Assembly (NCBI GenBank): GCA_945860415.1 | Contig: CAMAQA010000005.1 | Span: 507-64,506, forward strand | Reading direction: 5' to 3' | Length of the DNA stretch: 64,000 nt | Origin: Bacteriovorax stolpii | Lineage (GTDB): Bacteria > Bdellovibrionota > UBA1018 | In this document: positions 3,727 to 62,551 of the stretch, piece by piece | Layout of the letters: each line of letters opens with the position of its first letter | Numbering within the stretch: position 1 is the stretch's first letter | Program-made: the position numbers and the translations under genes | The notes under the pieces: generated by a model | What the model saw: the letters and a program-made list of their open reading frames with translations, nothing else | Databases searched by the model: none | What the model was told of the DNA's origin: nothing

Positions 3727-4761
3727 TCACAAGAGCGTGCAACTCAGGACTCGATGAAGATTGCTTCCGGTGGAGTTCTGGAACGGACCAAAGTGGTTGT
3801 AGGACTTCGAGTTGAAAAATGGCGAGACGCAACGTTCGGATGGATACTTCGCTCCGGTGACCTTCCCTCCGGCATCACGAATGAGGTTTGAAGCATGCGT
3901 CCTCGCCCGTGCAGTCGTGTTTGCCTGGATGACGTACGACTGCAGGAGCTTGTTCACTCCACAATAGGCATTGAAGCGCTGCGAAACGTCTCCGAGGGCA
4001 TGAATCAGCAGGGATCCGCTGATCGGCGACGTGAACCTAAAACCTGGATGACGCGCGTTCCAGCTCCTCACGCAGGACAGGACGTTGCCGCCGGGATCCG
4101 GCGAGAACTGGTACAGGCCGATATTCAGCTTGCTCGCGGCGTTTGATTGCAAAGGATCGCGGTAGAACAGAACGCCTCCAGGTCTGGAATATCCCTTCGG
4201 GCCCACGCTCCTGGCCACCGCATCCGAAGATGGGAGGTCAGCCGTGGTGAGCGACTCGGTGTACGCGAGACAACCCATCAGCTTGCTATAAAGGTGCATG
4301 GCCCTGTCCCAGCCTTCGAGTCGAACGGAGGCAGATGGGGAAAAGAGCGCCATTTCACGCGCCTGGTTGATCTGGCGTGAGAACTCGTTGGCAAGATCCA
4401 CGGTCCGCTGCGCTGGAGAAGATCCGATCGATTCACGAAGCGAAACCTGCGAGACGGAACATTGAGGATGGCTGAGGAGCGAGACTTTTCGTGGCACACT
4501 GATGACCGAAAAGAGCCGACCGTTTCCACCGAGACTCGGCACCTGCAATCCCGCATGGTCACGAAGCGCACTCTCGATGGACATGGCGAAGCTGGTTTTT
4601 CCGCGCAGCCGGGTCAGCTCACGCGCGCCGATCTGCTGGTCGACCTGGGTAAAGGAATCAGTAAACCGCGGGAATTCGCGAGGATCGCGGGGAAGTGCAG
4701 CCGACGAGAGCTGCGGAAGGATAGCCAAAAGCATCCATAGATGTGGAAAGGCACTGCGCAT
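3727..4761 (-). CDS. Secreted protein with possible lytic transglycosylase/lysozyme-like motifs
   Basis: SD GAGGAG before ATG 4761; signal peptide; motifs LAYTES, IGLYQF and FNAYCGVNKL in SLT-like order. Confidence 0.5.
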   Translation of the reverse strand: MRSAFPHLWMLLAILPQLSSAALPRDPREFPRFTDSFTQVDQQIGARELTRLRGKTSFAMSIESALRDHAGLQVPSLGGNGRLFSVISVPRKVSLLSHPQCSVSQVSLRESIGSSPAQRTVDLANEFSRQINQAREMALFSPSASVRLEGWDRAMHLYSKLMGCLAYTESLTTADLPSSDAVARSVGPKGYSRPGGVLFYRDPLQSNAASKLNIGLYQFSPDPGGNVLSCVRSWNARHPGFRFTSPISGSLLIHALGDVSQRFNAYCGVNKLLQSYVIQANTTARARTHASNLIRDAGGKVTGAKYPSERCVSPFFNSKSYNHFGPFQNSTGSNLHRVLSCTLL

Positions 4762-4837
4762 CGGAGTTCTCCTCATGACTGCGCGCGAACCTATCATGAT
4801 TAATGCGTTGCGTCATTTATAAAATAATACCATTGTT

Positions 4838-5212
4838 TCAACCAGATAGAGCAGAACAGACCCCCTCCAGCTGCGGCCACTGAAACGGCCGGAAGATGCG
4901 CTGATCTCTCTCCGCCAACGGCAGGCGCTCGAGTTCCTCGCGCGATCCGATGACGATGAGCGGAACTCCGGAGGTGAGCGGGTCCTGCTTCAAAATCGTC
5001 ACTGCCTCGGCCGGGGTGACGTCCTCAAAAACCAGATCGAGCAGGATCGCACTCCAGCCCCCCTCACGGGCACGGTGCAGTCCTTCCTTGGCCATGGGCC
5101 AGCCCTCGACCATGGTGAATCGCGGTGAAAGCCTTTCTTCGTACCGCTCGAGCGCCTCCCAGTCGTCGACGATCAGCAGCAGCGAATGCTTCGTGTCGCC
5201 CGAGCGGGTCAC
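4838..5212 (-). CDS. Single-domain response regulator (CheY-like receiver)
   Basis: LLIVDD, ILLDL and VPLIVIGS motifs; conserved KP replaced by RP. Confidence 0.75.
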   Translation of the reverse strand: MTRSGDTKHSLLLIVDDWEALERYEERLSPRFTMVEGWPMAKEGLHRAREGGWSAILLDLVFEDVTPAEAVTILKQDPLTSGVPLIVIGSREELERLPLAERDQRIFRPFQWPQLEGVCSALSG

Positions 5213-5652
5213 GCGAACACCTTTCCGAACGAGTACTCGTGCCAGCCCGGTCGTTCATGGTCGGGATGAAACCCTTCGAAGCGATATCCCTGGCGCAGCT
5301 TGATCATGATCATCGGAAGGTTGTCGATGTAGACCGTGGTCATCACTTTCTTGAAACCGTCGCCCCGAACCTGGTCCTCGATGGCCTGCGAGAGCATCTC
5401 TCCGTATCGCTTTCCTCGATGGGCGGGATCAATGACCGTCTTCACGGTTTCCGCCAGGGTCGGAGTGCGCTCGACATAGGCGCTCGCACCCACGCGCGCT
5501 CCCTCCACGACAGCCCAGAAAAACCTCGTTCGTCCGGATGCGACGGAAGCCTCCGTGAGAGGAACCGCTGCGCGATAGTGGGCGTTGATGAATTCGACCA
5601 GCTGAAGCATTTCGCCCCGGTCCGAGAGGTTGAGCGGCTGAAGGGTCATCAT
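5209..5652 (-). CDS. GNAT N-acetyltransferase
   Basis: Acetyl-CoA motif VIDPAHRGKRYG; N...GY motif; overlaps the receiver gene by 4 nt. Confidence 0.8.
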   Translation of the reverse strand: MMTLQPLNLSDRGEMLQLVEFINAHYRAAVPLTEASVASGRTRFFWAVVEGARVGASAYVERTPTLAETVKTVIDPAHRGKRYGEMLSQAIEDQVRGDGFKKVMTTVYIDNLPMIMIKLRQGYRFEGFHPDHERPGWHEYSFGKVFA

Positions 5653-14875: not shown

Positions 14876-16000
14876 ATGGAAATGCGGATTGACCCCCAAA
14901 ATGCGTTTTTTCGATGCGTCGAGGACTCGAGCGAAGCCATCATGATCAGCGACCGCTCAGGCACGCTGCTCTATGTGAACCCCGCGTGGCAGCGCATTTA
15001 CGGATTCTCGGCCAACGAGGCGATCGGCAAGACGCCCGGACTCCTGCACTCCGGACTCCATTCGAAGCTCTTTTACGACAAAATGTGGGAGCAGATTCGC
15101 GACCCCAAGGTCGGCCACTGGAAAGGAGAGCTCATCAACCGGTGCAAGGACGGAAGCCTCGTGCCCGTGCTGCTCACGATCACGCCGGTTCGATCGACCC
15201 ACGGTGAGATCACCGGGTACATGGGAGTTGCCGTCGATGTTCGATTTCGGAAGGATCTCGAAGCCAAGGTGGCGCACCAGGATCGCCTGGCTTCAGTGGG
15301 CCTGTTGGCCAGCGGCATCGCGCATGAGATTGGTACTCCTCTGGGCGTGATTCGAGGACGTGCCGAAATCATTGCCGGAAACCTGGATGCGGCTGGAGGA
15401 GATCCAGCCACGATTGCCAGGATTCAAAAGAGCCTGGAAGTGATCGTCGGCCAGGCCGATCGCATCTCGCGCCTGATCCAGTCGCTTCTTGGCATGAGCC
15501 GCAGCTTCGGCGAGCTGCAGCTCCGGACTTTTGAAGCGAAGCAGGTCATCGACGAAGTCCTGGCGCTCGTCGGCCAGAACCTTCGCACCGATCGCGTCTC
15601 GATCCATCTCGATATCGAACCCGGGCTCGAGGTGATCGCCGACTCTTCGAGACTCCAGCAGATCATCCTGAACCTGCTGACCAACTCCACTCATGCCATC
15701 CGCAAGGCGATGCGCCTGGGCCGCACCAGCGGGCACGAGGTCACCATTCGACTGAAGAGCTATGGAGACCGTGTTCTGCTTTCCGTGACGGATTCTGGCT
15801 GCGGAATTCCGGAGCAGATGCTGAACGAAATCTTCAAGCCCTTCTTCACGACCAAGGATGTTGGAGAAGGCACCGGGCTCGGGCTTTCCATCGTGACCCA
15901 GCTCGTGAAGGAGATCGATGCGGAGATTGAAGTCAGGAGCACGGAAGGCGTGGGCACGACGTTCACCATCGCGCTGAGAAAGCCCCAAGCGCAGGCCTAG
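14876..16000 (+). CDS. Cytoplasmic PAS sensor histidine kinase
   Basis: PAS/PAC domain, H-box AHEIGTPL, N-box, DSGCG, FFTTK, GTGLGL. Confidence 0.93.
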   Translation: MEMRIDPQNAFFRCVEDSSEAIMISDRSGTLLYVNPAWQRIYGFSANEAIGKTPGLLHSGLHSKLFYDKMWEQIRDPKVGHWKGELINRCKDGSLVPVLLTITPVRSTHGEITGYMGVAVDVRFRKDLEAKVAHQDRLASVGLLASGIAHEIGTPLGVIRGRAEIIAGNLDAAGGDPATIARIQKSLEVIVGQADRISRLIQSLLGMSRSFGELQLRTFEAKQVIDEVLALVGQNLRTDRVSIHLDIEPGLEVIADSSRLQQIILNLLTNSTHAIRKAMRLGRTSGHEVTIRLKSYGDRVLLSVTDSGCGIPEQMLNEIFKPFFTTKDVGEGTGLGLSIVTQLVKEIDAEIEVRSTEGVGTTFTIALRKPQAQA

Positions 16001-17442
16001 ACCTCGGACTCCTCGCCCTCATTCTCGTCAGCGACGACCCATCCTGCTTCGCGTTCCTTGCGGTACAGCGTGCGGCGGTTGATGCCCAGGATCTGCGCGG
16101 CCTGTTCCTTCTTGCCACCGGTCTTCTCGAGGACCAGTCGCATGTAGCGGCGTTCGAGCTGCTCGAGCGTCGGAAAATCTCCGGTCGTGGTCGTGAAGAA
16201 TTCCTCTGCGCTGACGGTCACGCCGTCCGGCAGGTCCGCTTCGTCGATGAGGTGTCCCTGCGTGAGGACGACTGCACGTTCGACGAGATTCTCGAGCTCA
16301 CGCACGTTGCCTTCCCATCGCATGGCCATGAGCTTGCCCATCGCCCGACGCGTGAAACCATCCACTTTCGAGGCATTCGCGGACGAGTACTTGCGCAGGA
16401 AGTGCTCGGCCAGGACCGGAATGTCCTCTCGGCGCTGGCGAAGCGGCGGAATGACGATCGGAATCACGGAGAGGCGATAAAACAGGTCTTCGCGGAAGAG
16501 CCCTTCCTTGATGGCCTGCTTGAGGTCCTTGTGGGTCGCCGCGATGATGCGGACATCCACCGTCTTGCCGACGTTCTCGCCGACCGCGCGCACCTTGCGT
16601 TCCTGGATCACGCGCAGGAGCTTCGACTGGAGCCCCACGTTCATGTCGCCGATTTCATCCAGAAAAAGTGTTCCGCCCTCGGCCTCCTCGAAAAGGCCAC
16701 GCTTGCGCGTGTAAGCGCCAGTGAACGACCCCTTGGCGTGCCCGAAGAGTTCGGACTCGAGCAGCGTCTCCGGAATGGCCGTGCAGTTGATGGCCACGAA
16801 AGGCTTGTTCGAGCGGGGGCCGGTATTGTGGATCGCGCGAGCGACCATCTCTTTGCCCGTGCCGCTCTCGCCCGTGATCAGGACGTTCGCGGTGGCCTGC
16901 GACACGCGGCTGACGAGGTCGAAGACCTGCTTCATCGCCGGGCTCTTGCCGATGACGTCGCCGAGCGCCCAGCTTTTGCGGAGCTCGCGCACCAGGGCGG
17001 AGTTGTCTCGAGCAAGATTGCGGTGCTCGAGCGCCTTCTTCACGCTCACCGAAATCTCGGCGAGCTTGAACGGCTTCATGACGTAATGAAACGCGCCTCG
17101 CCTCATGGCTTCGAGGGCCGTCTCGACACTGCCGAACGCAGTGATCAGGATGATGGGAATTTCCGGACGGATTTCCTTCAGCCGGGCGGTGAACTCGAGC
17201 CCGTCCATCTGCGGCATCTTGATGTCCGAGATGAGGAGATCGATGTCGCCCTCCACATGTTCGACCGAAAGAGGACCTGATCGGCCGAGGGCTTCCAGCG
17301 CGGCGACAGCATTCGGAAACACCGTGACGTGGTAGCCTTCGGCCGAGAGCGAATCCTCGAGAAGCGAGCGCATCTCATGATCATCATCCACGACGACGAT
17401 CCGCGACTGGCGAGAACTGGTGGCGCTCTGCTTCGTGCTCAT
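15997..17442 (-). CDS. NtrC-family sigma54-dependent response regulator
   Basis: Receiver domain, GESGTGKE, GSFTGA, LFLDEIG, WEGNVREL, Fis-type HTH. Confidence 0.95.
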   Translation of the reverse strand: MSTKQSATSSRQSRIVVVDDDHEMRSLLEDSLSAEGYHVTVFPNAVAALEALGRSGPLSVEHVEGDIDLLISDIKMPQMDGLEFTARLKEIRPEIPIILITAFGSVETALEAMRRGAFHYVMKPFKLAEISVSVKKALEHRNLARDNSALVRELRKSWALGDVIGKSPAMKQVFDLVSRVSQATANVLITGESGTGKEMVARAIHNTGPRSNKPFVAINCTAIPETLLESELFGHAKGSFTGAYTRKRGLFEEAEGGTLFLDEIGDMNVGLQSKLLRVIQERKVRAVGENVGKTVDVRIIAATHKDLKQAIKEGLFREDLFYRLSVIPIVIPPLRQRREDIPVLAEHFLRKYSSANASKVDGFTRRAMGKLMAMRWEGNVRELENLVERAVVLTQGHLIDEADLPDGVTVSAEEFFTTTTGDFPTLEQLERRYMRLVLEKTGGKKEQAAQILGINRRTLYRKEREAGWVVADENEGEESEV

Positions 17443-21984: not shown

Positions 21985-22518
21985 CTATTTCGCGCGGCCG
22001 ATCAGGCTGCGCTCGTGCGGAATGTCGGTGAAGGCCAGCAGGCGCGCCTCCCAGGTGTGCTGTTCCTTTGCCGCCTTGGCACTCTCTTCGTGATCCATCC
22101 CGAGCAGGTGCAGGAGTCCGTGCGTGAGCAGGATCCAGAGCTCCGCTTCGGCCGAGTGATGATGCTCGCGCGCCTGGCGCTTGAGCACCGGAAGCGCGAT
22201 GGCGAGTTCACCGAGGTATCCCATGCTCCGGAACGGCTCGGGCGAGGTGAAGCTGAGCACGTCGGTGGCGTAGTCCTTCTTGCGGTAGTGGGCGTTGAGC
22301 TTCTTCATCTCGGCATTTCCAACGAGGCGGACACCGACGCGCCACTCGCCGGTCTTGGGTCCGCGCTTTCTCAGTGCCGGAAAATGAAGCGCAAAATCGA
22401 TGAGGTCTTCGATCGCGCGCTCGGCCTTGCGGTTCCAGGTGGCGAGGTCGCGGGAGACGGCTGGATTTTTTGGGGATTTCTTTGGGGAGAGCTTCTTCGA
22501 CGCGGTTTTTCGGGCCAT
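21985..22518 (-). CDS. ybeY: rRNA maturation endoribonuclease YbeY
   Basis: LNAHYRKKDYATDVLSF and HGLLHLLGMDH motifs. Confidence 0.95.
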   Translation of the reverse strand: MARKTASKKLSPKKSPKNPAVSRDLATWNRKAERAIEDLIDFALHFPALRKRGPKTGEWRVGVRLVGNAEMKKLNAHYRKKDYATDVLSFTSPEPFRSMGYLGELAIALPVLKRQAREHHHSAEAELWILLTHGLLHLLGMDHEESAKAAKEQHTWEARLLAFTDIPHERSLIGRAK

Positions 22519-22629
22519 GGGCGGAGCCTATCACAGGGCATCGCGAAAGGAACCAGACCGGGCAGCCCTCATCCTGAGAGACTCCGAGTTCAATGCTGTA
22601 CCCGGGCCCTCCTCAGTCTGCGGTGGTCG

Positions 22630-22761
22630 TCAACAATGAGGGATCAGTGCCGTGAGAAGAACCAGAACCCTGACGAAAACGACCAGTCGCCATTTGATGG
22701 ATTCAAGTTTTCTCTCGGCCTTCCGATGAGAACAACAGTTTCTTGGTCTGTTGTTTTTCAT
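22630..22761 (-). CDS. 43-aa basic/hydrophobic peptide, candidate type I toxin
   Basis: MKNNRPRNCCSHRKAERKLESIKWRLVVFVRVLVLLTALIPHC, preceded by the extended SD AGAAAGGAGGTGATCC. Confidence 0.6.
   Translation of the reverse strand: MKNNRPRNCCSHRKAERKLESIKWRLVVFVRVLVLLTALIPHC
22703..22729 (+). promoter_or_regulatory. Putative sigma28 (FliA) promoter antisense to the small ORF
   Basis: TCAAGTTT-N11-TCCGATGA versus consensus TAAAGTTT-N11-GCCGATAA. Confidence 0.6.
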
Positions 22762-22800
22762 AGGATCACCTCCTTTCTGTCTGGGAAAGGAGGTCCACCC
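22736..22800 (+). ncRNA. Candidate antisense antitoxin RNA (ends approximate)
   Basis: Would start just after the sigma28 -10 box and cover the peptide's ATG and the SD hairpin (22768-22794). Confidence 0.4.
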
Positions 22801-22834
22801 ATCTACTCTGCCTGGTCTGGCCGGGCGCTCCAAA

Positions 22835-22850
22835 AGCAAGGTCGATACCA
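22835..22850 (-). promoter_or_regulatory. Putative sigma54 promoter of the structured mRNA
   Basis: Minus strand TGGTATCGACCTTGCT = GG-N10-GC; predicted +1 (~22824-22822) coincides with the 5' stem arm. Confidence 0.65.
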
Positions 22851-22978
22851 CTTGAAACCCTGAAAAGACCGCTCTGTGCGATCAGGTGCGGCACTCTCTC
22901 TGTTGTCCCGGACTCCACGTCGTGGTTCCGGACCAAAAACCGGCTGCATCCCCCCCTTCCCTGCGCTACATCCAAGGC

Positions 22979-24001
22979 ATGCCCGACACGACGAAGACCC
23001 CGGCCGCTCCGCTTCCGATCTCACCGCAGCAGATCGAGGCGCTGACCCACATGATCCAGACCGTGCACCGGCTTCGTGCTCCGGGTGGATGCCCGTGGGA
23101 CATGAAACAAACCCATCAGTCGCTTCGCCAGTACGTCATTGAGGAAGCGTACGAGGTGCTCGACGTCCTCGACCGCATCGAGTCTTCCGAGAAGCTCAAG
23201 TCCGACCCCGCTCTTGCGGCCACCTTCCAGGAAGAACTGGGCGACCTGCTCCTACAGGTGGTGCTGCATTCCGAAATCGCCTCCGAAACCGGAACGCTCG
23301 ATATTTTCAGCGTGGCGCAGGGCTTGGCCGACAAGCTGATCCGCCGCCATCCGCATGTGTTCGGCGAAGTCAAAGTCGAGGGCGCCGAGGGCGTGCTTCA
23401 GAACTGGGAAAAACAGAAGGCTGCCGAAAAGGCGGCAAAGAGCGCCGAAGCGAGCGTGCTCGATGGCCTGCCTCGGAGCATGCCCGCGCTCCAGCGCACC
23501 ACACGCCTGATCGACAAGGTCACGCGCGTCGGTTTCCAGTGGAACGATCTGAACGGTCCGCTCGACAAGCTGGCGGAGGAACTGGGCGAATTCCAGCACG
23601 AGGTGCGCGAGCTCGAGGCAGCGCAAAAGGCCGCCGCAGGCCAGCCCGCTTCGGGCAGCCCAACCGCTGAAGATCTGCGAAGGAAGGCACAGGCGGAGCT
23701 CGGTGACCTGCTCTTCAGTCTTTGCAATATCGGCTTCCTGCTGAAGCTCGATCCGGAAGATGCGCTCCGCGGAACACTCCACCGTTTTGAGGGCCGCTTT
23801 CGCCATGTCGAGAAGCGCTTGCGCGAGAACGGCAAAAAACCGGAAGAGTCCACCCTGGAGGAAATGGATCGCTACTGGGATGAAGCCAAGCGACTCGATC
23901 GCTCCGGCGCCGAAGCTCCACCGGCACGCCCCGCCGGAGAACAACCGGCCCGCGCCGGTTCGGGAGACCAGGCCCGCGCCGGTTCGGGAGACCCCAAGTG
24001 A
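22979..24001 (+). CDS. mazG: Nucleoside triphosphate pyrophosphohydrolase MazG
   Basis: LRAPGGCPWD, EEAYEV, EELGDLL, KLIRRHPHVF and a second EELGE/ELGDLLF module. Confidence 0.95.
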   Translation: MPDTTKTPAAPLPISPQQIEALTHMIQTVHRLRAPGGCPWDMKQTHQSLRQYVIEEAYEVLDVLDRIESSEKLKSDPALAATFQEELGDLLLQVVLHSEIASETGTLDIFSVAQGLADKLIRRHPHVFGEVKVEGAEGVLQNWEKQKAAEKAAKSAEASVLDGLPRSMPALQRTTRLIDKVTRVGFQWNDLNGPLDKLAEELGEFQHEVRELEAAQKAAAGQPASGSPTAEDLRRKAQAELGDLLFSLCNIGFLLKLDPEDALRGTLHRFEGRFRHVEKRLRENGKKPEESTLEEMDRYWDEAKRLDRSGAEAPPARPAGEQPARAGSGDQARAGSGDPK

Positions 24002-33331: not shown

Positions 33332-34351
33332 TCAACCGAACAGGGCGACGAAGTCATCCCAGTGGTTGCGCAGGCGTCCCTTGAGTCTAAGGATGGCCTG
33401 CGTGTGCAGCTGGCTGACTCGTGACTCGGTCACATCCAGCACGCGGCCGATTTCCTTCAGGTTCAGGTCTTCGTAATAATACAGCGAGAGCACCAGGCGC
33501 TGCTTTTCAGGAAGGTCGTTGATGCAGTCGGCGACCATCTTCTTGAAATGCGCCATGTTCACTTCGGCGAAGGGCGTAGCCGACTTGCTGGGAGACTCAC
33601 CGTACCCGTGCAGGGCCCGCTTGTCCTGCTTGGAGAAGTTCGTGATGTCGTCGTAGGAAAGCAGCGACACGCTCCGCACCTGGTTGAGCATGTCATGATA
33701 CTCTTCCTGCGAAATATTCAGCTCGGCGCAGATCTCCTCGTCCGTGGCCTGCCTGCCCTTCTGCTGCTCGATCTTCGAGTAGCAGCGCTCCAGCTGCTTG
33801 GCCTTTTCGCGGACCGATCGCGGCACCCAGTCCTGTGCGCGAAGCTCGTCGAGGATCGCCCCACGGATGCGGAATTCCGCATAGGTCTTGAACTTGTTGT
33901 CGCGGGTGGCGTCGTACTTGTCGATGGCATCCATGAGCCCGATCACTCCGGAGGAGATCAGGTCGTCGAGCTCGATGTTTGCTGGAAGTCGCGCAGCGAT
34001 CTTCTGGGCGATATACTTGATGAGCGGCGCAAACTCGATGATCAGCTTGTCGCGCGTGCTGTTGTTGGGCGTGAAGTCTTCGCGCACGAGGCTGGAGGTG
34101 TGCGCCGCTTCGGCGACGATCTCACGCTCCAACTCGCGCTGGAGGGCCTCCTCCTCTTTCCGGGCGCGCTCGGCGTCTGCAAGGTCATCAACAGCCTGGC
34201 CGACGGATTGTGCGACCGGAGCAGCCTCGCCCGGCTTCACTCCAGAGGATTTTGCCGCGCGTCCCGCGGCACGCTGACGGGCCTTTTCGGCCGCCGTCTT
34301 GTCTTCGCCCGCGTTCTTCCGGTACCGCTGAAGTCCTGCATTCACGCTCAT
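33332..34351 (-). CDS. fliA: Flagellar sigma factor sigma28 with N-terminal extension
   Basis: DDLISSGVIGL, RIRGAILDELRAQDWVPRSVR, TESRVSQLH. Confidence 0.95.
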   Translation of the reverse strand: MSVNAGLQRYRKNAGEDKTAAEKARQRAAGRAAKSSGVKPGEAAPVAQSVGQAVDDLADAERARKEEEALQRELEREIVAEAAHTSSLVREDFTPNNSTRDKLIIEFAPLIKYIAQKIAARLPANIELDDLISSGVIGLMDAIDKYDATRDNKFKTYAEFRIRGAILDELRAQDWVPRSVREKAKQLERCYSKIEQQKGRQATDEEICAELNISQEEYHDMLNQVRSVSLLSYDDITNFSKQDKRALHGYGESPSKSATPFAEVNMAHFKKMVADCINDLPEKQRLVLSLYYYEDLNLKEIGRVLDVTESRVSQLHTQAILRLKGRLRNHWDDFVALFG

Positions 34352-56364: not shown

Positions 56365-57348
56365 TCAGACGTCGAGTCCGTCGCGACGATAGTCCGCCAG
56401 CTTGTTTCGGAGCGTGCGGATCGAGATTCCGAGCGCGCGCGCCGTGTGGGTGCGGTTTCCTTCGTGGTGCTTGAGCGCATCGAGGATGACGTTCTTCTCG
56501 ATCTGGTCGAGCGTGCGTCCGGGAACCCAGCCCGAAAGGTCGATCTGGGCGCCGAGTCCGGCCTCCGCCCCGATTCCATTCGTTCCGAGAGGACGACGAT
56601 ACTCGATGCGGATATCGGTGGGCTCGATCAGGCCGCCATCACTAGCCGTCAGGACGGCGCCTTCAATGACGTTCTCGAGCTCGCGGATATTGCCGTTCCA
56701 GGAATGTGATTCCAGCACGGCAAGCGCCGCCGGAGACACTCCGGCGATCCGCCGCTGGTTCTTCCGGGCAAAACCTTCGACGAAATTCCGGGCCAGAAGG
56801 GTGACATCTCCGGTGCGCTCGCGGAGCGACGGAATGGTCAGGTTCACGACATTGAGGCGATAGAACAGATCTTCGCGGAAGCTGCCTTCGCGCACACAGT
56901 CGGCGAGGTTGCGATTCGTCGTCGCGATGATGCGGACATCGACCGAGATCGGCTTTCGGCCGCCGAGGCGATCCACTTCGCCCTCCTGGATCACCCGCAG
57001 GAGCTTGGCCTGGAGGCGAATGTCCATTTCCGAAATTTCATCGAGAAGCAGCGTGCCGCCATTCGCGAATTCAAACTTTCCGGCCTTGCTGTTCACGGCA
57101 CCGGTGAATGCCCCGCGCTCGTAGCCGAACAGCTCGCTCTCCAGGAGGTTCTCCGGAATTGCAGCGCAGTTGATCGCGACAAAGGGCTTCGAGGCCCGCG
57201 ACGAACTTTCATGGATCAGCGAAGCCATCAGTTCCTTGCCAGTACCGCTTTCTCCCTGGATCAGGATCGTGGCCTTGCTCTGCGCCACCGTCCTTGCAAG
57301 CTGGATCAGGTCCTTCATCCTACGATCGGCTGTGATGATCTCCGTCAT
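56365..57348 (-). CDS. sigma54 enhancer-binding protein lacking an N-terminal regulatory domain (AAA+ and HTH only)
   Basis: Starts directly at the AAA+ domain; GESGTGKE, GAFTGA, WNGNIREL; HTH GISIRTLRNKL of FlgR/FleR type. Confidence 0.92.
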   Translation of the reverse strand: MTEIITADRRMKDLIQLARTVAQSKATILIQGESGTGKELMASLIHESSSRASKPFVAINCAAIPENLLESELFGYERGAFTGAVNSKAGKFEFANGGTLLLDEISEMDIRLQAKLLRVIQEGEVDRLGGRKPISVDVRIIATTNRNLADCVREGSFREDLFYRLNVVNLTIPSLRERTGDVTLLARNFVEGFARKNQRRIAGVSPAALAVLESHSWNGNIRELENVIEGAVLTASDGGLIEPTDIRIEYRRPLGTNGIGAEAGLGAQIDLSGWVPGRTLDQIEKNVILDALKHHEGNRTHTARALGISIRTLRNKLADYRRDGLDV

Positions 57349-61805: not shown

Positions 61806-62551
61806 CCATCACCGCAGATTGCGTCCTCGAACTCCGGGGCCTCAGACGCAGGTTTGGAAGCAAGATCGTCCACGAGGGCATCGACCTCCAGCTGCGCGGC
61901 CAGGAGCTGCTTGCCCTTTTCGGCGGATCAGGAACGGGCAAGAGCCTGATCCTGCGCTCAATCATCGGGCTCGAGGAGCCCGATGCCGGCGAGATTCTCT
62001 GGCATGGAAGGACGATCTCGGGACTTCACGAACGGGACTGGATCGACGTTCGAAAGAAGATCGCCTATGTCTTCCAGAATGGCGCGCTATTCGATTCGCT
62101 CACGGTCTACGAAAACCTCGCCTACCCGCTCCGAGAGCATACGAAGCTGAAGGAACCGGAAATTCGAGCCCGCGTGGCCGAGATGCTCACCCTCGTCGAC
62201 ATGCCCGGATCCGAGAACCTGCTTCCGGGCGAGCTTTCCGGCGGAATGCAAAAGCGGGCGGGCCTTGCCCGCGCCATGATCCTGGGCCCGGAAATTCTGC
62301 TCTTTGACGAACCGACGGCAGGACTCGATCCGGTCAACACGACCCGCTTCGTGCAGAACATCCTCGACCTGAAGAGACGCGGCCTGACCGGAATCTTCGT
62401 CACCCATGACATCGCCAGCGCGCTCGCCGTGGCCGATCGAATCGCGATCCTGCACCAGGGTCGGATCCATTGCATTGAAACCGTCGAGTCGATCCGGTCC
62501 TCCCGTGATCCGGTTGTCCGAAAATTCCTGTTCCCAGAGGAGAGCACATGA
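61802..62551 (+). CDS. mlaF: MlaF-family ABC ATPase
   Basis: GGSGTGKS, FQNGALFDSL, LSGGMQKR, DEPTAGLDP. Confidence 0.93.
   Translation: MTITADCVLELRGLRRRFGSKIVHEGIDLQLRGQELLALFGGSGTGKSLILRSIIGLEEPDAGEILWHGRTISGLHERDWIDVRKKIAYVFQNGALFDSLTVYENLAYPLREHTKLKEPEIRARVAEMLTLVDMPGSENLLPGELSGGMQKRAGLARAMILGPEILLFDEPTAGLDPVNTTRFVQNILDLKRRGLTGIFVTHDIASALAVADRIAILHQGRIHCIETVESIRSSRDPVVRKFLFPEEST

Follow-up and report, generated by a model that had tools for sequence, protein, structure and literature searches.

A multi-copy type I toxin-antitoxin-like candidate with sigma54- and sigma28-type promoters in one order of Bdellovibrionota

The gap between ybeY and mazG in a 64-kb stretch of Bacteriovorax stolpii DNA (G000:C5:507-64506, G000 being the organism's own genome; the whole stretch is called the window, and coordinates without a prefix refer to it) holds a unit of about 290 nt, at 22551-22850 on the minus strand. 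By sequence comparison this unit is one copy of a multi-copy gene cassette that is restricted to a single order of Bdellovibrionota. We read it as a member of an undescribed type I toxin-antitoxin (TA)-like family, with an mRNA in the style of hok and AapA and with sense and antisense promoters for two alternative sigma factors, a reading given slightly better than even odds (about 0.55). The traits shared by the copies match such a module, namely a hydrophobic open reading frame (ORF), a predicted closed mRNA with an occluded Shine-Dalgarno (SD) sequence, a putative cis-antisense promoter, and copies that are tandem, patchy, decayed or split by an insertion sequence (IS). A TA locus under sigma54 and sigma28 had been proposed here from five elements (a GG-N10-GC box, a 5'-3' pairing, a hairpin burying the SD, a 43-codon ORF and nested stems in the 3' untranslated region, or 3' UTR), all of which were located by sequence inspection where they had been placed; what the original prediction missed is the multi-copy family nature of the unit, which is the strongest evidence. 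The features of the window copy and its flanks are:

22835-22850, minus strand: sigma54-type -24/-12 box TGGTATCGACCTTGCT, fitting GG-N10-GC, with TTGC at -12
22808-22822, minus strand: 5' arm of the closing (5'-3') helix, GGCCAGACCAGGCAG, in the minimum-energy fold and the RNAalifold consensus
22768-22794, minus strand: anti-SD/SD hairpin ACCTCCTTTC-ccagaca-GAAAGGAGGT, a perfect 10 bp with a 7-nt loop, burying GGAGG
22763-22778, minus strand: extended SD AGAAAGGAGGTGATCC, a 16-nt perfect complement of the 3' tail of the organism's own 16S rRNA
22630-22761, minus strand: ORF of 43 codons plus stop, MKNNRPRNCCSHRKAERKLESIKWRLVVFVRVLVLLTALIPHC, with ATG at 22761 and stop at 22632-22630
22731-22755, minus strand: post-start hairpin AACAACAG/CTGTTGTT, from the minimum-energy fold and covariation
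22703-22710 and 22722-22729, plus strand: antisense sigma28 (FliA)-type promoter TCAAGTTT-N11-TCCGATGA, a conserved box across codons 15-23
22581-22610, minus strand: 3'-UTR hairpin with the conserved loop GGGTACAGCA, the loop near-invariant and the stem variable
22566-22642, minus strand: outer 3' stems CCCTCAT/ATGAGGG and CTGAG/CTCAG, spanning the ORF end and the 3' UTR, in the minimum-energy fold
22551-22565, minus strand: 3' arm of the closing helix, CTGCCCGGTCTGGTT, in the minimum-energy fold; homology among copies stops here
21985-22518: ybeY, flanking the unit
start at 22886 or 22980: mazG, flanking the unit

Copies, range and turnover of the unit

A BLAST search of 22519-22900 against the organism's own genome returned nine places at E<=1e-3, corresponding to eight loci, of which five are full copies, one is split by an IS and two lie at contig ends. 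Similarity among the copies begins exactly at the GG-N10-GC box and ends at the end of the 3' arm, and each full copy has an ORF of 42-44 aa behind GGAGGTGA(T/C)CCTATG. Besides the window copy, these are:

C107:3030-3318: full copy, 90% identical to the window copy
C81:3638-3931: full copy, 90% identical
C87:4614-4881: full copy, 79% identical
C10:50086-50365: full copy, 68% identical
C81, 4139-4296 and 5548-5695: split copy, interrupted by a 1.25-kb insertion
end of contig C2: 5' half of a copy
end of contig C25: 3' fragment of a copy

Outside this genome the distribution is patchy and narrow. DNA matches were obtained in 9 of 41 relatives' genomes, and a peptide profile searched in six frames matched 21 of the 75 genomes of the taxonomic family (G000 included in both counts), with up to 24 matches in one genome and with tandem arrays such as that at 62312, 62741 and 63180 of G083:C5. 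In a sample of 401 genomes of the phylum, 22 were matched at E<=1e-5, all within the window's order, where the matches per taxonomic family were 14/57 (f1), 4/7 (f2), 1/1 (f9), 1/1 (f6) and 1/17 (f10); no peptide match was found outside the order in this sample, the largest families there giving for example 0/100, 0/53 and 0/34. Known type I families are likewise described as narrow-ranged and often tandem in passages of PMC5367252 and PMC2887945. When 1.84 billion small proteins were searched with a 30-peptide profile, 84 representatives were matched, 24 of them at E<=1e-10. A DNA pattern scan of species genomes yielded 18 stretches, 15 of which carry units of the family and all come from Bdellovibrionia, Oligoflexia, Bacteriovoracaceae or Bacteriovorax records of metagenome-assembled genomes; the other three, from Desulfosarcina, Omnitrophota and Nitrospinota records, were discarded as unrelated false positives. 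The same kind of scan in metagenomes gave 24 stretches with 27 distinct units and one false positive, and plasmids and phages gave zero matches.

Altogether 59 distinct units with full flanks were collected, 56 of them assigned to the family and 50 of these with an intact ORF, so that counts given below as 'x of 50' refer to intact units; in the remaining six of the 56 the ORF is frameshifted, truncated or IS-split, a turnover that resembles that of toxin genes. The genes beside the copies vary (SDR, glutathione peroxidase, TPR, MFS, NFACT and NUDIX), and no conserved neighbouring gene was found among the copies examined. At the ybeY-mazG site itself G000 and G003 carry the unit, which was not seen there in G002, G005 or G001, although G002 has copies elsewhere; the intergenic regions of these three genomes are too diverged to set insertion borders or target-site duplications.

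Two observations concern the way in which copies change. The split copy of contig C81 is interrupted within its ORF, after ...CCATGGCGAC, by a 1.25-kb insert (4297-5547) with a single ORF of 363 aa that contains HTH_32 and an rve integrase core and is a DDE transposase. A second, differently diverged copy (G000:C2:76626-76907) is broken at the same junction by the same insert sequence, and the identical junction in two diverged copies suggests that the IS has a preference for this target site. The orthologous ybeY-mazG copy of G003 (contig C310) is nearly identical to the window copy in its leader, its SD hairpin and both arms of the closing helix, and the ORF subtypes of the two differ (SHRKAERKLES against SCRIRLEKLKQK); identical RNA parts around a different ORF subtype suggest recombination or gene conversion among paralogous copies.

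RNA fold and ribosome-binding site

The fold that had been put forward for 22545-22825 of the minus strand is borne out by RNAfold, which returns a minimum energy of -116.9 kcal/mol against -93.7 +/- 5.6 kcal/mol for shuffled sequences (z -4.17; 0 of 200 as stable), in a structure that contains the 5'-3' helix, the SD hairpin, the post-start hairpin and the 3' stems. The 15 positions over which GGCCAGACCAGGCAG pairs with CTGCCCGGTCTGGTT, with one A-C mismatch and two G-U pairs, are those originally described, and a closing helix of 14-15 bp is kept in 49 of 50 intact units, with its 3' arm 43-67 nt after the stop codon in the relatives. Compensatory changes, proposed earlier as a test of the structure across other copies and relatives, were found in the closing helix, the SD hairpin and the post-start hairpin, the same three elements that RNAalifold predicts from an alignment of 26 units, each taken from its predicted 5' end through the 3' arm. 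Over the 33 pairs of this structure 94.8% of the cells are paired, against 87.6% in shuffled alignments and 36-52% when the partners are slid by 1-3 columns, the percentage paired being biased by the choice of the 26 units from 35 by a duplex energy <= -20 kcal/mol; changes on both sides occur in 17 of the 33 pairs, against 8.5 in shuffles. None of 500 shuffles attains any of the five pairing measures, and with the unit being multi-copy a chance origin of these features was rejected.

Most of the covariation lies in the closing helix, where 10 of 14 pairs show changes on both sides and 98.4% of the cells are paired, pairs being exchanged for instance between A-U (13) and G-C (11), or between G-C (11) and A-U (10). 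The helix contains 48 G-U cells and 6 non-standard ones; since a G-U pair would be A-C on the other strand, it acts in the RNA of the ORF strand and not as the inverted repeats of a transposon. The SD hairpin has one compensatory pair, U-A in 19 sequences replaced by C-G in 6, through which GGAGG/CCTCC becomes GGGGG/CCCCC. In the post-start hairpin all five consensus pairs show changes on both sides: AAC AAC AG / C TGT TGT T becomes AAT AAT AG / C TAT TAT T, and the synonymous change of the Asn codons from AAC to AAT, matched by TGT to TAT (Cys to Tyr), indicates that the RNA hairpin dictates the identity of the residues. Positions 9-10 of the peptide are Cys-Cys or Tyr-Tyr, tracking AAC or AAT in the paired Asn codons. 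An unbiased check was provided by the 27 metagenome units, which had been chosen by the SD-hairpin pattern alone: 19 of the 20 that could be evaluated have a closing helix <= -26.7 kcal/mol, lying 52-67 nt past the stop, and the lone exception has a frameshifted ORF.

The 3' UTR is less regular. In the 26-unit alignment the loop GGGT(A/G)CAGC is nearly invariant, and in the 25 sequences tested the predicted folds place it in a local hairpin whose stem varies; MAFFT with RNAalifold gave no consensus structure for the 3' UTR, and the 3' stems were read by eye from per-sequence folds. All three nested stems of the original prediction are in the minimum-energy fold. Two of them, CTGAG/CTCAG and CCGGGT/ACTCGG, covary in relatives by eye, the flanking CTGAG/CTCAG pair varying among C-G, G-U, G-C, A-U and U-A, and the outermost, CCCTCAT/ATGAGGG, was unconfirmed there. 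The loop motif GGGTRCAGC is not enriched genome-wide (20 seen, about 38 expected). A flagellin 5' leader (G000:C25:20270-20330) has a hairpin, GGCAGG-GGTACAGCAAATT-CCTGCC, preceded by GGGAGGGCCCGG, that resembles the 3'-UTR hairpin of the family (GAGGAGGGCCCGGGTACAGCA), and GAGGAGGG...GGGTACAGCA is common to G000:C20:15801(-) and G000:C31:4853(+). No Rfam family was found for the unit, the best hit being CC2171 (E 2.1, matching the SD only).

The ribosome-binding site stands out by its length and by its burial. The 16S gene of this genome (G000:C36:22424-22440) ends in GGATCACCTCCTTTCT, of which 22778-22763 of the minus strand is an exact 16-nt complement; across the family the SD complements 14-16 nt of the 16S 3' tail, and its distance from GGAGG to AUG is an ordinary 7 nt. 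A 16-nt complement far exceeds the usual Shine-Dalgarno length, and an antisense transcript through 22763-22778 would bear a 16-nt copy of the 16S tail. The segment GAAAGG-GGTGATC is invariant in the 26-unit alignment, though GTGATCC falls outside the hairpin stem. The perfect 10-bp hairpin burying the SD is present as described, with a probability of GGAGG being unpaired of 0.00, and the in silico folds leave no base of the SD unpaired, whether the RNA is full-length, trimmed at the 3' end or cut to its first 75 or 110 nt, from which it follows that the lock would form before the ORF is transcribed. In type I toxin mRNAs the SD is occluded before the ORF is transcribed; the modelled RNA of the family is likewise highly structured, with an occluded ribosome-binding site.

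Putative promoters on the two strands

The minus-strand box TGGTATCGACCTTGCT, described before as GG-N10-GC at 22850-22835, is present and conserved in 48 of 50 intact units, in which the 5' arm is preceded, always at the same distance, by (G/A)G-N10-GC with a T before GC, in forms typified by GGCACCAAAGTTGCT and GGCATTGAACTTGCT; GG is found at -24 in 40 of 50. Going by the usual geometry of sigma54 promoters, the sense start (+1) is taken to be near 22824 of the minus strand and, in the family, 2-4 nt before the 5' arm. With GG and GC exactly 10 nt apart, and with one rpoN and at least 15 full-length enhancer-binding proteins in the genome, this is by sequence a sigma54-dependent type of promoter; no sigma70-like promoter was detected in 22000-23400. 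The weight given to the box comes from its conservation within the family, and not from enrichment over the genome.

No conserved enhancer or upstream activator site was found at the units of the family. An inverted repeat, CCTGAAAAATCAGG, is shared by four metagenome copies (L117, L119, L122 and L124), where it precedes the -24 box by about 45-60 nt, and is absent from the window copy; it may serve as a site for an activator or for IHF, or may be where a tandem copy lying ahead comes to its end. In the 15 enhancer-binding proteins examined the AAA+ domain is followed by 146-230 residues, a length that gives no hint of an activator devoid of a DNA-binding domain. Two of the sigma54 enhancer-binding proteins are encoded in the window, at 16000-17442 and 56368-57348, both on the minus strand; one of the two is a protein of 327 aa without an N-terminal regulatory domain, of which there are four genome-wide.

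The opposite strand carries, within the ORF, a second box whose family consensus reads cTTAAGTTTTTCCAGC...ATCCGATGAG, that is TTAAGTTT-N11-TCCGATGA, to be compared with the Escherichia coli sigma28 consensus TAAAGTTT-N11-GCCGATAA. This sigma28-type box, also part of the original prediction, is present on the plus strand of the window copy and conserved in 45 of 50 intact units, with a predicted antisense start near 22736-22738. Synonymous sites of the box are constrained. TCGG never varies, even where a change would be silent; the Arg codon CGG and the third-position T that precedes it are invariant in 30 of 30 ORFs, whereas the residue encoded by the codon with that T varies among H, Y, C, D and S; and indels, common on either side of the two boxes, are never found between them. 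The codons of the box are non-preferred ones (CGG 18.7% of Arg, CTT 20.8% of Leu and AAA 21.7% of Lys codons in 1031 long ORFs). A loose sigma28 motif has eight matches in the genome, five of them inside copies of the family, and by eye two flagellin genes of this genome carry TCAAGGAT-N11-TCCGATCA and TTAAGCCG-N11-ACCGATGA, which have the same layout.

The fliA gene lies in the window, at 33371-34042 of the minus strand, and was found in 71 of the 75 genomes of the taxonomic family, which makes a cross-tabulation of fliA against the peptide family uninformative. The antisense box also resembles the FliA attack-phase promoters of Bdellovibrio bacteriovorus, for which a consensus TTAAG-N16-CCGATA has been reported in 92 of 140 promoters, including those of three small RNAs (PMC3627812), against TTAAG-N15-CCGAT here. 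The peptide family differs in being found, in the phylum sample, only in the window's order, and the published B. bacteriovorus RNA maps may for that reason not cover it.

The peptide, competing explanations and a possible mechanism

The 43-codon ORF was described as having a basic N-terminal and a hydrophobic C-terminal half, and this description holds for the window peptide (net charge of the N half +7) and for the family, which comprises 30 distinct peptides of 42-51 aa, an intact ORF of this length being kept in 50 of 56 units. The net charge before the hydrophobic segment is +4 to +9 in all 30; the most hydrophobic 15-residue stretch has a median Kyte-Doolittle value of 2.63, and most members have an Arg or Lys within the hydrophobic segment. 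The ORFs have a median dN/dS of 0.45-0.51, and within the hydrophobic half it is the second codon positions that vary least. AlphaFold2, run with the alignment, models a single helix over residues 8-42, with a mean predicted local distance difference test (pLDDT) score of 76.5 and a pLDDT of 90 over residues 21-40. Judged by these sequences, the unit has the small (<70 aa) conserved ORF with a hydrophobic segment that is looked for in a type I toxin. The window peptide matched no Pfam family at E<=10, the 30 members matched nothing relevant at E<=1, and NCBIfam has no family for the peptide; the nearest named protein-atlas cluster is TisB, at a score of 0.77 that makes it a weak lead, often due to chance by the atlas's own rating.

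Among known systems, hok/Sok shares with the family a long-range 5'-3' fold-back helix that closes a structured, silent mRNA (here predicted) for a small membrane peptide, multiple copies in chromosomes, and a cis-antisense RNA (here a candidate) aimed at the translation-initiation region, the Sok-type layout outlined in passages of T1TAdb. The family differs from it in having no Hok match in Pfam, no Sok match in Rfam and no mok-like leader ORF, in an antisense start that lies inside the ORF, in promoters of sigma54 and sigma28 types, and in belonging to another phylum. Likeness to AapA1/IsoA1 of Helicobacter pylori, compared by gene layout alone (that of T1TAdb; see also PMC6733600), extends to an anti-SD that sequesters the SD from the start of transcription, a 5'-3' closing interaction, an antisense RNA (here putative) that overlaps the 5' part of the ORF, and several chromosomal copies. 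Here the peptides are longer, at 42-51 aa, and their basic N-terminal half is long; the SD complement reaches 14-16 nt, and promoters of alternative sigma types take the place of the housekeeping ones found there. The toxin mRNAs of TisB/IstR-1 and DinQ/AgrB are transcribed only on a signal (LexA/SOS), and a conditional toxin mRNA that is inactive as first transcribed would be a further trait in common; the family has no TisB match in Pfam, and in its case the signal would come from sigma54 and an enhancer-binding protein.

Several results weigh against a type I TA-like family with promoters for two alternative sigma factors. In hok, trimming of the 3' end refolds the mRNA and unmasks the SD; in the family, by contrast, 3' truncation fails to release the SD in the folds, a thermodynamic prediction, and no activation route is evident. 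At the sense promoter, 8 of the 48 sigma54 boxes have AG and not GG at -24, the strict sigma54 pattern shows no enrichment over the genome (40 matches against about 34 expected from base composition), and homology among copies stops at about -26, so that the unit carries no shared enhancer site. On the antisense side the CCGAT core at -10 is found in just 33 of 50 intact units, with CCGAC or CCGAG in 12 more; no conserved intrinsic terminator for the antisense RNA was seen within the unit by eye; and fliA went unmatched at E<=1e-40 in G059 (95% complete) and G073 (75% complete), two genomes that carry the family. For the peptide, a dN/dS of about 0.5 means only moderate constraint, and positions 9-10 track RNA pairing and not residue identity.

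Three other explanations have been considered. The same anatomy could serve a harmless small membrane protein, for example a regulator of a membrane complex for motility or predation, gated by sigma54, by mRNA structure and by FliA antisense without any TA logic. Many small membrane proteins are non-toxic, and the structural and promoter evidence fits such a protein equally well, as do the moderate constraint on the peptide and an SD lock that stays shut after 3' trimming. The genomic distribution tells against it: numerous copies in one genome, tandem arrays, patchiness within the genus and decayed or IS-split copies are typical of selfish or dispensable modules, and the copies lack a conserved neighbouring gene. 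A harmless protein is thus regarded as somewhat unlikely.

It has also been considered that the RNA is the main product, its 16-nt complement of the 16S tail, or an antisense copy of that tail, acting on ribosomes or SD sites, with the ORF secondary. The most conserved parts of the unit are indeed non-coding (GAAAGG-GGTGATC and the GGGTRCAGC loop, invariant or nearly so), GTGATCC is kept despite its position outside the hairpin stem, and codons yield to RNA pairing. A secondary ORF is hard to reconcile with the ORF length, frame, in-frame indels and hydrophobic pattern kept in 50 of 56 units and with the ordinary spacing of 7 nt between GGAGG and AUG, and this explanation is rated as improbable. 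A miniature inverted-repeat mobile element, in which the 5'-3' pairing would be terminal inverted repeats and the ORF and promoter motifs incidental, would account for the multiple, patchy copies, the inverted repeats near both ends and the gain or loss at ybeY-mazG, but it is barely credible and was rejected: the repeats are not at the very ends of the unit, whose conserved part starts about 27 nt ahead of the 5' repeat; they tolerate the 48 G-U cells, on one strand only, with almost no A-C, which is selection on RNA of one strand; the ORF is under purifying selection; no target-site duplication can be defined; and plasmids and phages gave zero matches.

If the unit is a type I TA-like module, its operation can be pictured as follows. 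The sigma54-type promoter would drive an mRNA of about 275 nt, the first 15 nt or so of which would pair with the last 15 or so, with the SD locked in its hairpin as soon as it is transcribed, so that the sense RNA would be a stable, translationally silent store for a membrane-active peptide. From the FliA-type promoter a cis-antisense RNA would start about 25 nt inside the ORF and run over the start codon, the SD and the 5' leader, where it may block translation, trigger decay of the sense mRNA, or both; since the two predicted starts are convergent, with about 88 bp between them, antisense transcription would also collide with transcription from the sigma54 promoter. Synthesis of the peptide would call for firing of the sigma54 promoter by an enhancer-binding protein at a time of low FliA activity. 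A bolder version couples the module to the life cycle: FliA, which in B. bacteriovorus is the attack-phase sigma factor, would keep antisense RNA on while the cell is motile, an activator of sigma54 would load the inert toxin mRNA, and the peptide would be made as FliA falls, for example at prey entry or at the switch to growth, when the 16-nt SD would displace the hairpin and capture ribosomes. This coupling is put forward tentatively and is rather doubtful; if true, the module would be the first TA pair with its two RNAs assigned to two different alternative sigma factors.

The description of the family as new, made in the original prediction, agrees with the searches, in which no known RNA or protein family matched. 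No description of such a locus was found in full-text literature searches on type I toxins and Bdellovibrio/Bdellovibrionota, T1TAdb, Fozo 2010 and Coray 2017 do not mention 'Bdellovibrio' in their main text, and the pairing of a sigma54 sense with a sigma28 antisense promoter was not found described in the literature searched. On the sequences compared, the new elements are the family itself, the sigma54- and sigma28-type promoters for its two putative RNAs and the 16-nt SD complement. Type I TA families are mostly missed by annotation. Twenty-four of them are counted in T1TAdb, and in the abstract of a 2025 paper (PMC12390103) they are reported from Proteobacteria, Firmicutes and Tenericutes only. 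Taken as such a module, the present family would add one from Bdellovibrionota whose RNA fold is supported unusually cleanly by comparison, and would offer a natural case of a coding sequence under three overlapping constraints, those of the peptide, of an RNA hairpin and of an antisense promoter.

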